A stretch of DNA of 64,000 nucleotides from positions 1 to 64,000 of IMG/VR virus record IMGVR_UViG_3300044981_000387; one strand, given 5' to 3'. The first letter of the stretch is position 1. Each line of letters begins with the position of its first letter. A model generated the notes under the pieces. It was not told where the DNA came from. It made no database searches and worked only from the letters and a program-made list of their open reading frames with translations. This stretch comes from a virus. The position numbers and the translations under genes are program-made. Below, one piece after another: positions 19,034 through 63,078 of the stretch.

Positions 19034-19546
19034 TTATTCGTAGCCTTCTGGCGTCTTTTCTTGTGAAGCACCTGAACTATATCCGAGGATTGTTCTTCTC
19101 ATGCCCCCAGCAATATCTTTATAATGATGGTGAGCTTTGATTAAAACATCGTATTTTCGTTCCAGGTATACTTTGCTTCCACGAGCGCTGGCTAACTTAA
19201 TTTGTACTGCATCTACTTCGGGCGATACGTCCGCTGCCCATTTTTTCATATCCAAAGTCGTTCTGGCCCCATCGGGAGCCAGATACTCTAAAGATACTTT
19301 ATTTCTTGTACTATTTACTTTAGTTTCTAAATATCCTACTGTTTTAACTATTTTGGCCAGATATTCAATTAATACGTCAGCACCTCTTAATGCTTGTTGT
19401 TGCAACAGTTCGGCGTGAGTCAAATCAATTGCATCGGTATTTTTAAGGCTATCTAATACGTCCTGGATTTCGGTGAGATCGAAATTATCAAAATCTGACT
19501 CTAATTCATGACCTAATACATCGCCAAGTCTTACTGATTGGTCCAT
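19034..19546 (-). CDS. Helical protein, possibly UvsY-like recombination mediator
   Basis: All-helical heptad pattern immediately upstream of recA. Confidence 0.4.
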   Translation of the reverse strand: MDQSVRLGDVLGHELESDFDNFDLTEIQDVLDSLKNTDAIDLTHAELLQQQALRGADVLIEYLAKIVKTVGYLETKVNSTRNKVSLEYLAPDGARTTLDMKKWAADVSPEVDAVQIKLASARGSKVYLERKYDVLIKAHHHYKDIAGGMRRTILGYSSGASQEKTPEGYE

Positions 19547-38890: not shown

Positions 38891-39091
38891 TTATTTACCA
38901 CCGCAACCACAGCCTTTGTTAAAAACGGGCGGATTGGGATTTACTTTCTTAAGACACGCCGAACAAATCTTATCAGTTAATGAACAATATTCGCATATAA
39001 CTGCCACGGTCACTAGCACCTCGCCTTGACAACGAATGCATTTCTTCTTAGTATATAAAAAGGCAAGTTTGCTGCAGCTGCTACACATCAT
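38891..39091 (-). CDS. Small Cys-rich protein
   Basis: 66 aa with four CxxC pairs plus CGC. Confidence 0.5.
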   Translation of the reverse strand: MMCSSCSKLAFLYTKKKCIRCQGEVLVTVAVICEYCSLTDKICSACLKKVNPNPPVFNKGCGCGGK

Positions 39092-56834: not shown

Positions 56835-57151
56835 TACTTTTTACCAGCTTTTATCACCTGACTTAAAATAACTCTTAAATCGGGCATGCTAAAATCAAGA
56901 GGTGGCAATTTGCTATGAGCCTCTTCAATATATTTCTCAAAAGCAAAATCATTGCCAGCAATTCGTCGAGTAGCTAACTCTTGCATACACATCACACTAA
57001 TTTGTTTGTCGATACTAAAATAACGATCACACACTACCATTTCACATAACTTTTCTGAAGAATATTGTGGAAGATTAGCGCGAACCTTATCTATGTCCAA
57101 TTGAACTGCTTCTTCATCCGAAGGCAACTCTTCTGTTTCTTTATTTGTCAT
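56834..57151 (-). CDS. Hypothetical protein
   Basis: 105-aa ORF. Confidence 0.55.
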   Translation of the reverse strand: MTNKETEELPSDEEAVQLDIDKVRANLPQYSSEKLCEMVVCDRYFSIDKQISVMCMQELATRRIAGNDFAFEKYIEEAHSKLPPLDFSMPDLRVILSQVIKAGKK

Positions 57152-57491
57152 AATTCCTCAAAGACGGCGGAGTGGAAACACATGCCTTTAAGGCAGGGAA
57201 TATAACTCCTTTTTTGCGATGGGTAAAAAAAGATAATTTGCAATCAAAAAATAATTTGTTAAAGTTTAACACTTTGCCTAAAATTAACAGGTCCCTAATA
57301 CTAGAAAATACAGCTTTAACAATAATGCCAACTTCTGACTTGTCAATCAACGGATACCTTTGATATACTCGTTCTACTAAATCTTGATTATTCTTAAGAC
57401 TAATGGGATAATTGATATTCATATAATCAACTACTTGTTGATGTGATAGATCCTTAAAGTAAAAGGATCTGGCGATCTTAACCTTCTTCAT
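57141..57491 (-). CDS. Divergent HU/IHF-like protein
   Basis: LVERV...LIDKSEV..IV.AVF..IR..L..GK.L pattern. Confidence 0.55.
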   Translation of the reverse strand: MKKVKIARSFYFKDLSHQQVVDYMNINYPISLKNNQDLVERVYQRYPLIDKSEVGIIVKAVFSSIRDLLILGKVLNFNKLFFDCKLSFFTHRKKGVIFPALKACVSTPPSLRNYDK

Positions 57492-60006: not shown

Positions 60007-60082
60007 TGGTGCCCTCAGCAAGAATTGCACCTGCGACATTCGCCTTAGGAGAGCGACGTTCTATCTGCTGAACTATGAGGGC
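60007..60082 (-). tRNA. tRNA-Arg (anticodon CCU), CCA encoded
   Basis: GCCCTCA/TGAGGGC acceptor, GTTC/GAAC D stem, TCGCT-CTCCTAA-GGCGA, T loop TGCAATT, ACCA end. Confidence 0.92.
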
Positions 60083-60089
60083 GTTCTAT

Positions 60090-60638
60090 TTATGCCTTAC
60101 TTTTAGTAGGAGACACGATAAGCCACATAAACTTACCTTCAAGGGAAATCTGTGGATTTGGTTGAATTAGTCCATCTAATTCTTTAACGATAAAATCTAA
60201 TTTTTCTTTACCAATATTAGAATGAGTTATTTCGCGACCCCTAAACCTAACCGTAAACTTGACCCTATTGCCATCTTCCAAAAACCCTTTAGCTTGTTCT
60301 AGCTTGTGGTTTAAGTCGTTTTCGTCAGTTGAAGGTCTAAAAGTAAGCTCCTTTAATTCCTGCACCGTTTGGTTCTTTTTGGCAGCTTGTTGCTTTTTCT
60401 TTTCTTCATATTTCATCTTGCCAAAATCGGCGATGCGACACACTGGGGGCACGGCTTTTGGATTAATTTCAATTAAATCTAGACCTTCATCTTGAGCTAG
60501 CTTGAGGGCCTCTCGGGTGCCCATGATGCCACCGTTCTTACCATCACTTAAGATAACTTGAACTTGGGGCACTCTTATATGGTGATTAATACGAGTCCTA
60601 TATTGTTGCTGTTGTTGATTATTGGCGGTGGTCTGCAT
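60090..60638 (-). CDS. infC: Translation initiation factor IF3
   Basis: RIN..IR.PQV, EALKLAQ..GLDLIEI.P...PPVCRIADFGK.KYE, KVKF-like RVKFTVRFRGRE. Confidence 0.95.
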   Translation of the reverse strand: MQTTANNQQQQQYRTRINHHIRVPQVQVILSDGKNGGIMGTREALKLAQDEGLDLIEINPKAVPPVCRIADFGKMKYEEKKKQQAAKKNQTVQELKELTFRPSTDENDLNHKLEQAKGFLEDGNRVKFTVRFRGREITHSNIGKEKLDFIVKELDGLIQPNPQISLEGKFMWLIVSPTKSKA

Positions 60639-61569: not shown

Positions 61570-61803
61570 TTATTTCCTTGTGGCTAAAAAACGACCCATA
61601 TGATACAGGGCTACAAAAGGTGCCATCGCACAAGCTAGCGCCAATACTCCGGGCCAGGTGGCAGCCAACCAAAAAGCAGGCACCATTATGCTTTCAGCTT
61701 CTTTAATTTTGCCACTAGCTTTTTGATAACCAGCTACCACAGCTCCAATGGCAATAATCACTGGCATCATACCAAAATATATAGTAAAATACAAATCAAT
61801 CAT
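61570..61803 (-). CDS. Small two-helix membrane protein, paralog of 61321..61566
   Basis: AATWP...APF motif; AGGA RBS. Confidence 0.6.
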   Translation of the reverse strand: MIDLYFTIYFGMMPVIIAIGAVVAGYQKASGKIKEAESIMVPAFWLAATWPGVLALACAMAPFVALYHMGRFLATRK

Positions 61804-61821
61804 ACATTTCCTTAATTAAGT

Positions 61822-61895
61822 TGGAGGGCCTTCCGGGAGTTAAACCCAGCTCTGCGAGTTTAGAGTTCGCGGCACAATCGCTATACCAAAAGCCC
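61822..61895 (-). tRNA. tRNA with CUA (amber-decoding) anticodon, non-canonical D and T loops, CCA encoded
   Basis: GGGCTTT/AAGGCCC acceptor, GTAT/GTGC D stem, GCGAA-CTCTAAA-CTCGC, CTGGG-TTTAACT-CCCGG, TCCA end. Confidence 0.85.
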
Positions 61896-61903
61896 CTTTA
61901 TCT

Positions 61904-62116
61904 TCAGTTCAAGTTGGTAAATTGTTTAATCGGAGGGTTTTTGACTTCATCCAATGTGGGCAATTCTTCTTTATTTAATTCTGCCTCAAACTCTTGTCTT
62001 TGACGATCGGCTCTCTTCTCAAACCAATCTTCCGCAAAACGCCATACAACACCCAAAACTGCACCCGCCAATACTACCAAACCCATTAGTTCTACTAACC
62101 ACATGACTTGCCTCAA
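61904..62116 (-). CDS. Small protein with N-terminal membrane anchor
   Basis: Hydrophobic first 26 aa then charged tail. Confidence 0.55.
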   Translation of the reverse strand: MRQVMWLVELMGLVVLAGAVLGVVWRFAEDWFEKRADRQRQEFEAELNKEELPTLDEVKNPPIKQFTNLN

Positions 62117-63078
62117 CTTAATGCCATCATTCGATTGATGGACAACCTAGCACCATTCATCAATTCCTCTGACATTATTATCTGAGGATCCAAATCTCTT
62201 AAAGAGAGATATACCTTCTCCAAAGTATTCTTCTTCATGTAAGGGCACTCATTGCAAGCGCAGCTGGCTTCCGGAGGAGCTGGAATAAAAATTTTATCAG
62301 GGCAAGCTTTACGCATCTGATGTAGGATACCCGATTCTGTGGCCACAATAAACTCGGAAGCGGAACTGGATACCGCATATTTGAGTAGTCCAGTGGTGGA
62401 TGAAATATGATCTGCCATATTAAGAATGGCTTCCTCGCATTCCGGATGAGCAATAATGAGGGCTTGCGGATGTCGAGTTTTGAGAGCAATCAACTTTCTT
62501 TGACTGAAAGTCTCATGCACCACACAGGTGCCTTGCCACAAAACCATGGGAATGTCGGTCTTTTTGATAATATAGGCTCCCAGGTGCTTATCGGGAGCAA
62601 ACAGCAGTTGTGAGCCATTCTGGGCGGCATGTCTAACAATTTTTTCGGCATTGGAAGAGGTGCAAATATAATCGGATAAGGCCTTGACTTCCGCCGAACA
62701 GTTGATGTAGCTAATAACAATGGAATCGGGATATTGAGCTTTCCAATGGGCAAACTGATCGGCAGGACAACCGTCAGCTAAAGAACAGCCAGCCGTTAAG
62801 TCGGGAAGCACCACTATTTTATTGGGACTAAGAATCTTGGCGGTTTCAGCCATAAAATGGACACCGCAAAAACATATAGTGTCAGCGTTAGTAGCGGCAG
62901 CTTGTTGCGACAGTTGCAAAGAATCACCAATAAAGTCGGCTACATCTTGAATGTCGGAATCTTGATAATAATGGGCCAAGATAACGGCATTACGACTTTT
63001 CTTCAGCTTATCAATCTCTGCTTCCAAATCGAGAGAAGGATCGACATACGGCTGATTGAGAATCGGTAGATTATTCAT
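62113..63078 (-). CDS. nadA: Quinolinate synthase A (NAD biosynthesis)
   Basis: ILAHYYQ, GDSLQL, CGVHFMAE, GCSLAD, YINCS, APDKHLG, CVVH, AHPEC, CPYMK. Confidence 0.96.
   Translation of the reverse strand: MNNLPILNQPYVDPSLDLEAEIDKLKKSRNAVILAHYYQDSDIQDVADFIGDSLQLSQQAAATNADTICFCGVHFMAETAKILSPNKIVVLPDLTAGCSLADGCPADQFAHWKAQYPDSIVISYINCSAEVKALSDYICTSSNAEKIVRHAAQNGSQLLFAPDKHLGAYIIKKTDIPMVLWQGTCVVHETFSQRKLIALKTRHPQALIIAHPECEEAILNMADHISSTTGLLKYAVSSSASEFIVATESGILHQMRKACPDKIFIPAPPEASCACNECPYMKKNTLEKVYLSLRDLDPQIIMSEELMNGARLSINRMMALS

Follow-up and report, generated by a model that had tools for sequence, protein, structure and literature searches.

Phages of genetic code 15, in which TAG is recoded (crAss-like, Lak and Agate phages), encode a suppressor tRNA, tRNA-Sup(CUA), and their recoding is proposed to run from a rare stop codon through the gain of a suppressor tRNA to in-frame stops (Borges et al., bioRxiv 10.1101/2021.08.26.457843). 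The phage suppressor tRNAs published are tied to genome-wide recoding of TAG to glutamine. As for bacterial hosts, tRNA-Gly amber suppressors are functional in vivo (PMC9976931) and, as far as the original work is cited there, tRNA-Gly(CUA) inserts glycine in vivo in E. coli (McClain et al. 1991, via PMC9976931).

We analysed a window of 64,000 nucleotides, the opening 64 kb of a linear virus record that is 120,727 bp long (the contig). The contig belongs to a large, jumbo-type soil phage and is about 28% complete (CheckV). The contig is a fragment, since one gene is cut by its end and the two ends, when joined, give stops; a circular wrap that would complete the truncated PheRS gene was rejected for the same stops. 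A 5-kb megablast search against a phage collection gave no useful match.

The tRNA studied here (copy 1) resembles the code 15 systems in several respects. Both involve a phage-encoded CUA tRNA, a host with the standard code, a depletion of TAG as stop and, apparently, charging by the host. With its suppressor tRNAs and one gated gene, the present phage would fit the intermediate proposed for the recoding path. It differs from code 15 phages in that it is not recoded, with one convincing in-frame TAG in 120 kb, in that it carries two unrelated CUA tRNAs, and in coming from soil, not gut. Moreover, the acceptor end of copy 1 is not Gln-like (G1:C72, U73), and no release factor or matching synthetase was found in the contig.

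When compared to the E. coli tRNA-Gly(CUA) suppressors, copy 1 has the same class I body, anticodon loop CUCUAAA, U73, G1:C72 and G3:C70. It departs from them with G2:C71 in place of C2:G71, with A19:U56 and with A31.C39, and it is a natural phage gene, kept in different strains, and no mutant selected from a host gene.

Structure and authenticity of the tRNA

The gene and its main parts are the following.

61822..61895 (-): tRNA(CUA), copy 1, 74 nt; found by ARAGORN, Rfam, covariation and in run X2
61822-61824 (-): encoded CCA of copy 1, after U73
61861..61863 (-): anticodon CUA, tRNA positions 34-36, in the loop CUCUAAA with U33, A37 and A38

The minus-strand cloverleaf with a CUA anticodon is exactly the one that the earlier note had written out, with stems of 7, 4, 5 and 5 bp. 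The acceptor stem (GGGCUUU/AAGGCCC) leads into a U8 G9 linker, the D arm (GUAU-AGCGAUU-GUGC) is followed by C26, and the anticodon arm (GCGAA-CUCUAAA-CUCGC), the variable loop (AGAG) and the T arm (CUGGG-UUUAACU-CCCGG) complete the molecule. The unusual traits listed in that note were all recovered: a D loop without GG (AGCGAUU), a T loop without C56 (UUUAACU), a variable loop of 4 nt, a U discriminator before CCA, and an A-C mismatch, which is A31.C39 in the anticodon stem. All other stem pairs are intact, and U8, A14, U33, A37, A38, G53, U54, U55, A58 and CCA are conserved. The same anticodon loop is found in most of the 73 distinct CUA/UUA tRNAs that we parsed from related loci.

ARAGORN, which the note had proposed to run, identifies a tRNA of 74 nt (anticodon cta) at 61822-61895 (-) of the window; its label “tRNA-Pyl” stems from a table look-up of the anticodon only. 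Against Rfam RF00005 the gene reaches 35.7 bits (gathering threshold 29, E 6.6e-6) in a focused 501-nt scan, and this score needs such a scan, as the Rfam speed filters lost the gene in 64-kb and 8-kb scans. This loss indicates highly atypical loops. As a single sequence, copy 1 does not stand out in fold energy (z -1.4). For the family formed with seven homologues from other phage contigs, the cloverleaf fits with 98.8% of cells paired, and 14 of the 23 pairs show compensatory changes on both sides, a value matched by 0/500 shuffles. Sliding the pairing partners in the alignment makes pairing drop to 32-48%.

The sequencing runs that contain this stretch are soil metagenomes from several studies, and no RNA run is listed. 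In run X2, an independent soil metagenome, one contig shows 28 differences to the window over 1089 positions, none of them within 61774-61915; this strain thus has flanks that are 2.6% divergent and an identical copy 1. It follows that CUA, A19, U56, C39 and U73 are not assembly errors, which settles the read-level doubt about the anticodon that the note had raised. Copy 1 is a real phage tRNA. The claim that it would read UAG draws on its conservation and on the in-frame TAG conserved in PTH2 (below).

Thin evidence, a single contig of low depth in run X4, hints at another U73-CCA tRNA in this place. A blastn search with copy 1 against the phage collection gave no useful match, and its exact loop-only pattern had no match in viral contigs.

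Gene neighbourhood

The genes around copy 1, and further genes of the contig that relate to translation or stress, are given below.

60007..60082 (-): tRNA-Arg(CCU), conserved downstream module marker, with an A18/G55 elbow variant
60090..60638 (-): IF3 (infC), full-length; Pfam IF3_N and IF3_C, NCBIfam TIGR00168 (infC equivalog, 195 bits)
61570..61803 (-): 77-aa ORF, starting 18 nt past the CCA of copy 1, behind AAGGAAA
61904..62116 (-): 70-aa ORF with a hydrophobic segment, its stop 8 nt before copy 1
62113..63078 (-): NadA (quinolinate synthase), Pfam PF02445, 398 bits
contig 64245-64314 (-): second CUA tRNA (copy 2), Rfam 33.5 bits, missed by ARAGORN
contig 64324-64656 (-): PTH2-like gene, PF01981, with TAG as codon 4
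contig 65047-65404 (-): tmRNA, Rfam 89 bits, missed by ARAGORN
contig 65419-65648 (-): three tRNA-Thr (UGU, GGU, CGU), directly followed by the tmRNA
contig 65849-66637 (-): Thg1-like tRNA-His guanylyltransferase
contig 118644-119372 (-): gene with an HD_4 (RelA/SpoT-type hydrolase) domain

Copy 1 is part of a translation run on one strand, in the order Thg1-like gene, three tRNA-Thr, tmRNA, PTH2-like gene, copy 2, NadA, copy 1, IF3 and tRNA-Arg(CCU). The NadA gene lies between the two CUA tRNAs. Copy 2 is found 245 nt past the window end and 9 nt after the PTH2-like gene. It has G73, U3.G70 and the T loop GUCAGGA, its position 26 is not clear, and it is unrelated to copy 1. No convincing promoter or terminator was found beside copy 1, and its tight packing, with gaps of 8 nt and 18 nt, suggests co-transcription and processing from a longer transcript.

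Some further observations were made in this region. All three tRNA-Thr have U73 and two of them have an A19:U56 elbow. The IF3 gene, which adjoins tRNA-Arg(CCU), has 63-75% identity to its counterparts in L039, L121, L125, L005 and L013. The Thg1-like and HD_4 genes extend the translation and stress toolkit of the phage.

Genetic code and use of TAG

The open reading frames of table 11 cover 95% of the contig, and the phage uses the standard code, at least in the 120 kb examined. The earlier note had assumed a TAG-recoded phage, an assumption that this contig contradicts. One relative, G006, keeps the standard code throughout 267 kb. TAG accounts for 26% of stop trinucleotides in all frames, and it ends 0/88 genes in the window (minus strand) and 4/160 genes in the contig. 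One of these four is the following.

contig 116105-117979 (-): NAD-dependent DNA ligase (LigA), ending in tandem TAG TAG

The Metallophos gene that follows (115274-116083) shares the frame of LigA, and read-through of both stops would fuse the two. The tandem stop may guard against the suppressors of the phage itself.

In terms of in-frame TAGs, there is one convincing case in the 120-kb contig, codon 4 of the PTH2-like gene (ATG TGT TCG TAG AAC GAT AAA), which lies 2.4 kb upstream of copy 1. A systematic search of the contig gave no other convincing one. Read-through candidates upstream of 19034-19546, 57141-57491, 72894-73655 and 38891-39091, ATG-TAG starts at 84371 and 47252, and the LigA/Metallophos junction were rejected for want of a plausible start or extension. 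The release-factor search that the note had suggested returned no such domain in the contig, which is about 28% of the genome.

An alignment search with PTH2 retrieved 25 viral and 74 metagenomic loci; a single-protein PTH2 scan gave no match. Contigs of 20-447 kb repeat the gene order Thr tRNAs, PTH2, CUA tRNA(s), Arg-CCU, and the full conserved module is Thr tRNAs, tmRNA, PTH2, CUA tRNA(s), IF3 and Arg-CCU. PTH2 carries a TAG at codon 3-5 in 22 of the 25 related viral loci, and two loci with a PTH2 gene that has no TAG (L006, L007) show no CUA tRNA. Homologues without TAG at codon 4 have A, P, Y or N/K there, a non-conserved position, and the gate probably tolerates any residue at the UAG codon. 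Such tolerance would explain the drift of discriminator and acceptor among these suppressors, whose discriminator bases differ even within clades.

The very early stop in PTH2 resembles a minigene ahead of a peptidyl-tRNA hydrolase. A tRNA with a UUA anticodon replaces the CUA tRNA in L024/L096, L056, L058, L068/L069, L071/L107, L084, L102 and L108; these tRNAs, some with long variable arms, could read UAA and, by wobble, UAG, and in L024 the in-frame TAG of PTH2 is still present. A second in-frame TAG of PTH2 is found in L015/L016:10001-10324, at the Gln column of the nearest homologues (ALR#F vs ALRQF), next to a CUA tRNA of the long-arm type, 91 nt in length and with A73.

The elbow

The D loop of copy 1 is A14 G15 C16 G18 A19 U20 U21 and its T loop is U54 U55 U56 A57 A58 C59 U60, so that G18.U55 is retained and A19:U56 stands in place of G19:C56. 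We surveyed the elbow in 360 distinct tRNAs from this locus and related loci. GG in the D loop with C56 is the most frequent combination (329 tRNAs). GA with U56 is found in 11, which are all the U56 tRNAs of the survey, GU with A56 in four, and AG with G55 in about seven, among them tRNA-Arg(CCU) of the window. In the alignment of the clade to which copy 1 belongs (type B, below), six sequences have GC at 19:56 and one has AU. The elbow of copy 1 is therefore best read as compensated, i.e. rewired and not lost, A19:U56 being isosteric with G19:C56.

A second covariation is seen in this survey, with D-loop AG accompanying T-loop UGC (A18 with G55) and GU accompanying UUA (U19:A56). The loci concerned are 60007-60082 (-) of the window, L025, L041, L052, L070, L077 and L132. 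Both elbow pairs appear to vary in a compensated fashion within this phage group. Such covariation accounts for some of these genes being missed by standard tRNA finders and the Rfam speed filters, and the changes at 19:56 and 18:55 provide a useful natural data set on the constraints of the tRNA elbow.

In typical tRNA-Pyl a single nucleotide separates the acceptor stem from the D stem, the D loop has 5 nt, the anticodon stem 6 bp and the variable loop 3 nt, and the discriminator is G73. Copy 1 is like tRNA-Pyl in its CUA anticodon and in having no G18G19 / T-psi-C56 signature. It is unlike it in every architectural hallmark: two nucleotides (U8 G9) form the linker, the D loop has 7 nt and the variable loop 4 nt, the anticodon stem consists of 4 bp and the A.C mismatch, and the discriminator is U73. 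It also differs in that its elbow pair is compensated. The loss of GG and TpsiC had been put forward as a tRNA-Pyl trait, a comparison that falls away with G18 and U55 kept, A19:U56 compensating and the Pyl architecture absent. The PylRS search proposed along with it gave no PylS match (TIGR02367) above cut-off in the contig (about 28% of the genome) and four relatives (G001, G003, G006 and G007).

Related suppressor tRNAs and kinship with tRNA-Gly

Among the 73 CUA/UUA tRNAs, copy 1 falls in a clade (type B) with those of L002/L003/L004/L039, L067, L065, L005, L115/L117/L125 and L121. Its members have in common U8 G9, the D stem GUAU/GUGC, a 7-nt D loop AGYGRYU, C26, the anticodon loop CUCUAAA and the variable loop AGAG. 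The members other than copy 1 have Y1:R72, C2:G71, G3:Y70, G73 and a canonical elbow, and position 31 is paired to 39 in all but copy 1 and L005, the latter with the same A.C. Copy 1 is the exception of the clade, with G1:C72, G2:C71, U73, A19:U56 and A31.C39; within type B it alone has U73 and G1:C72, alongside G3:C70.

The closest relative is L039, with NadA 81% and IF3 75% identical. A homologue of the 70-aa ORF comes after NadA there as well. In L039 the type-B tRNA directly follows PTH2, the place that copy 2 takes here, with the type-B tRNA downstream of NadA.

As for the ancestry of type B, we searched 2.9 million viral contigs and 185,579 genomes with a pattern of D arm and T loop that is blind to the anticodon. 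Non-CUA matches in the viral contigs were tRNA-Gly (UCC, GCC) in six loci and one tRNA called Gln; those in the genomes were five tRNA-Gly (UCC, CCC, GCC) and one tRNA-Trp. Beyond the type-B CUA tRNAs, this amounts to about 10 distinct tRNA-Gly, one Gln and one Trp. The retrieved tRNA-Gly also have C26, a variable loop AGAC/AGAG and U73-CCA, which were absent from the search pattern, and they specifically have C16 and CU at T-loop positions 59-60 in common with copy 1. The type-B core (U8-G9, GUAU/AGYGRYU/GUGC, C26, AGAG) thus appears to occur otherwise almost only in tRNA-Gly.

This tRNA-Gly subfamily (L113, L114, L122, L128-L132) has the core UG-GUAU-AGCGGCU-GUGC-C, followed by AGAC/AGAG, UUCGACU and U73-CCA. 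Copy 1 matches it at 17 of the 19 positions from U8 to C26, in an AGAN variable loop, in CU at 59-60, and in U73, CCA, G1:C72, G3:C70 and the G10:C25/G45 triple. It differs from it in the anticodon (CUA, not NCC), in pair 2 (G:C, not C:G), in anticodon and T stems that are unrelated, and in A19:U56 in place of G19:C56.

Two of the loci, L131:2377-5703 and L132:2728-5309, carry about 20 to 30 tRNAs each for nearly all amino acids, including members of the tRNA-Gly subfamily matching type B, on contigs binned to Solibacteraceae and Acidobacteriaceae MAGs. These arrays could be phage-derived, or could hint at an acidobacterial host.

Amino-acid identity

The bacterial glycine identity set comprises U73, G1-C72, C2-G71, G3-C70, C35, C36 and a (G10-Y25):G45 triple (PMC9976931). 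Copy 1 has U73, G1:C72, G3:C70 and G10:C25/G45, and lacks C2:G71, C35 and C36, with G2:C71, U35 and A36 instead. Taken over the clade, the union of acceptor states equals the canonical glycine set U73, G1-C72, C2-G71 and G3-C70: copy 1 contributes G1:C72 and U73, the other type-B members C2:G71, and both G3:C70. The Y1:R72 and G73 of those other members imply that a glycine identity would not be conserved in the clade.

A Gln-type acceptor has a weak 1:72 pair (U1:A72) and G73 (PMC9976931). The acceptor end of copy 1 is not of this type, as the earlier note had held, since it has G1:C72 and U73. In E. coli, U35 draws GlnRS and LysRS to amber suppressors; G1-C72 and a base other than G73 speak against glutamine, a base other than A73 against lysine, and in the GluRS2/amidotransferase route G1-C72 acts as an antideterminant (PMC9976931). 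A non-Gln identity of copy 1 is plausible on these grounds.

Other isotypes have partial likeness. From the cysteine set of the E. coli type (U73, G2-C71, C3-G70, anticodon GCA, G15:G48; PMC9976931), copy 1 has U73, G2:C71, A36, G15 and G48 and is without C3:G70, G34 and C35; phage tRNA-Cys are among the tRNAs least similar to it (mean similarity 0.42). Features of glutamate tRNAs in copy 1 are U13.G22:A46, no residue 47, G1:C72 and U35.

When all tRNAs were used, a naive-Bayes classifier of isotype that was blind to the anticodon assigned copy 1 to glycine by 7.7 log units; its leave-one-out accuracy was 75%. Without the tRNA-Gly retrieved by the pattern, Lys, Asp, Ile and Gly came within 2.2 units, and the glycine call hangs on a single subfamily of tRNA-Gly. 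Ahead of the pattern search, ranking about 340 labelled tRNAs by plain similarity had pointed to no clear isotype. G006 has 65 tRNAs, a full set; its tRNA-Gly genes differ from copy 1 in the D arm, and the non-CUA tRNAs nearest to copy 1 there are Thr-AGU and Lys-CUU; the latter has six of seven acceptor pairs the same and an anticodon loop differing by one base.

For the residue that copy 1 would insert, we name glycine as a tentative first candidate; glutamine and lysine are each rather doubtful, to about the same degree, and cysteine, glutamate or others make up the remainder. It is conceivable, if unlikely, that the phage carries two suppressors of different identity, with copy 2 having a Gln-like acceptor and copy 1 representing the first natural phage tRNA to read UAG as glycine. 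As part of the same reading, a gated codon that tolerates any residue would leave suppressor identity free to switch, and type B would be a case of natural identity drift.

Synthetases and charging

The contig contains a single synthetase gene.

contig 119743-120727 (-): PheRS, mitochondrial-type, monomeric; cut by the contig end

It has the Pfam domains tRNA-synt_2d and FDX-ACB and scores 270 bits against NCBIfam TIGR00469 (cut-off 258). Homologues with 71% identity are present in G006 and G007, both with type-B CUA tRNAs. The gene is absent from five CUA-bearing relatives, two of them at least 97% complete: G002-G005 have neither the PheRS gene nor type B, and G001, which is 76% complete, has a type-B tRNA and no PheRS gene. 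G006 has two tRNA-Phe(GAA) besides its PheRS, which makes the enzyme an unlikely partner of copy 1. The earlier note had suggested that a phage synthetase encoded beyond the window might do the charging; there is one at the contig end, but it is this mitochondrial-type PheRS.

No GlnRS/GluRS, class IIb synthetase, GlyQ or PylS was found in the contig, G001, G003, G006 and G007. With no matching synthetase in the contig or these four relatives, host enzymes likely charge copy 1. Besides, G006 encodes a bacterial-type LysRS (L150:1018-2637, that is G006:8822-10441; TIGR00499, 495 bits), a record that is classed as a provirus, so this gene could be host flank. The second CUA tRNA of G006 (G006:176628) belongs to a “type C” group, which we take to resemble tRNA-Lys.

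Weighing the explanations

We moderately favour the reading of copy 1 as a functional amber suppressor of a standard-code phage, built on a glycine-like core. A possible but less probable account is that copy 1 is an ordinary glutamine suppressor, or a mixed Gln/Lys one, captured by host GlnRS/LysRS via U35. It would agree with part of the E. coli glutamine set (CUA with U35, G10:C25, G2:C71, G3:C70, A37), with the glutamine or lysine that amber suppressors with foreign bodies often insert in E. coli (PMC9976931), with TAG-to-Gln being the only phage case reported (Borges et al., bioRxiv 10.1101/2021.08.26.457843), with the second PTH2 TAG of L015/L016 at a Gln column, and with the Y1:R72 and G73 of the other type-B members. 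However, copy 1 has a strong G1:C72 and has U73 for G73, both at glutamine determinants; G1-C72 is the antideterminant of the GluRS2/amidotransferase route (PMC9976931), the A73 of lysine identity is missing, and the tRNA of L015/L016 is of an unrelated long-arm type. It is improbable that copy 1 is a redundant, decaying duplicate, with copy 2 beside PTH2 doing the work. Its oddity within the clade, in the altered acceptor end and the A31.C39 mismatch, its mere 35.7 bits with Rfam and loss to the speed filters in larger scans, and the position of copy 2 in the slot by the only known target, where L039 has its type-B tRNA, would all suit decay; yet the other stem pairs are intact, the elbow is compensated and not broken, and U33, A37, A38, U8, A14, G53, U54, U55, A58 and CCA are retained. 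A strain with a 2.6% difference in the flanks also has copy 1 unchanged, and the A.C at 31:39 in the type-B tRNA of L005 suggests that the mismatch is tolerated or used.

Dependence on a phage enzyme is far less credible still. Copy 1 and the class II PheS-like enzyme could form a private pair that places Phe or another residue at UAG, given that a synthetase gene is present at contig 119743-120727 and that its 71% homologues occur in G006 and G007 (type B) and not in G002-G005 (without type B). Kinship explains this co-occurrence equally well, though, and G001 has type B without the gene, albeit at 76% completeness. Furthermore, the enzyme passes the TIGR00469 cut-off and has the FDX-ACB domain for binding the Phe anticodon, G006 has two tRNA-Phe(GAA) of its own, and copy 1 has U73 where A73 is typical of tRNA-Phe. 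On the family assignment, the tRNA-Phe of G006 and the five relatives without the gene, PheRS was rejected as a private partner of copy 1. Least credible of all is that copy 1 serves a non-canonical amino acid as an adaptor like tRNA-Pyl. This reading can call on the CUA anticodon, the ARAGORN label and the missing GG and C56, against which stand the anatomy described above (2-nt linker, 7-nt D loop, 5-position anticodon stem, 4-nt variable loop, U73), the presence of G18.U55 and a compensated 19:56 pair, and the lack of PylS above cut-off in the contig and four relatives.

Discussion

If copy 1 is a functional suppressor with a glycine-like core, as we favour, it would be transcribed with its neighbour genes and cut out of the transcript, then charged by a host synthetase, and would read UAG. 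Its sole clear target in 120 kb would be codon 4 (UAG) of the PTH2-like gene, and further targets may lie in the missing about 70-72% of the genome. With TAG nearly purged from gene ends, unwanted read-through would be limited. As codon 4 of PTH2 is not conserved, any residue may serve there, which would let acceptor ends drift.

What is new here is a suppressor in a standard-code, jumbo-type soil phage, beside a second, unrelated CUA tRNA and with a body that looks glycine-like. If copy 1 inserts a residue other than glutamine, translating such phages with “code 15” would give the wrong residue at those sites. Phages could then co-opt host synthetases besides GlnRS, and the identity of a suppressor could drift where the gated codon ignores the residue.
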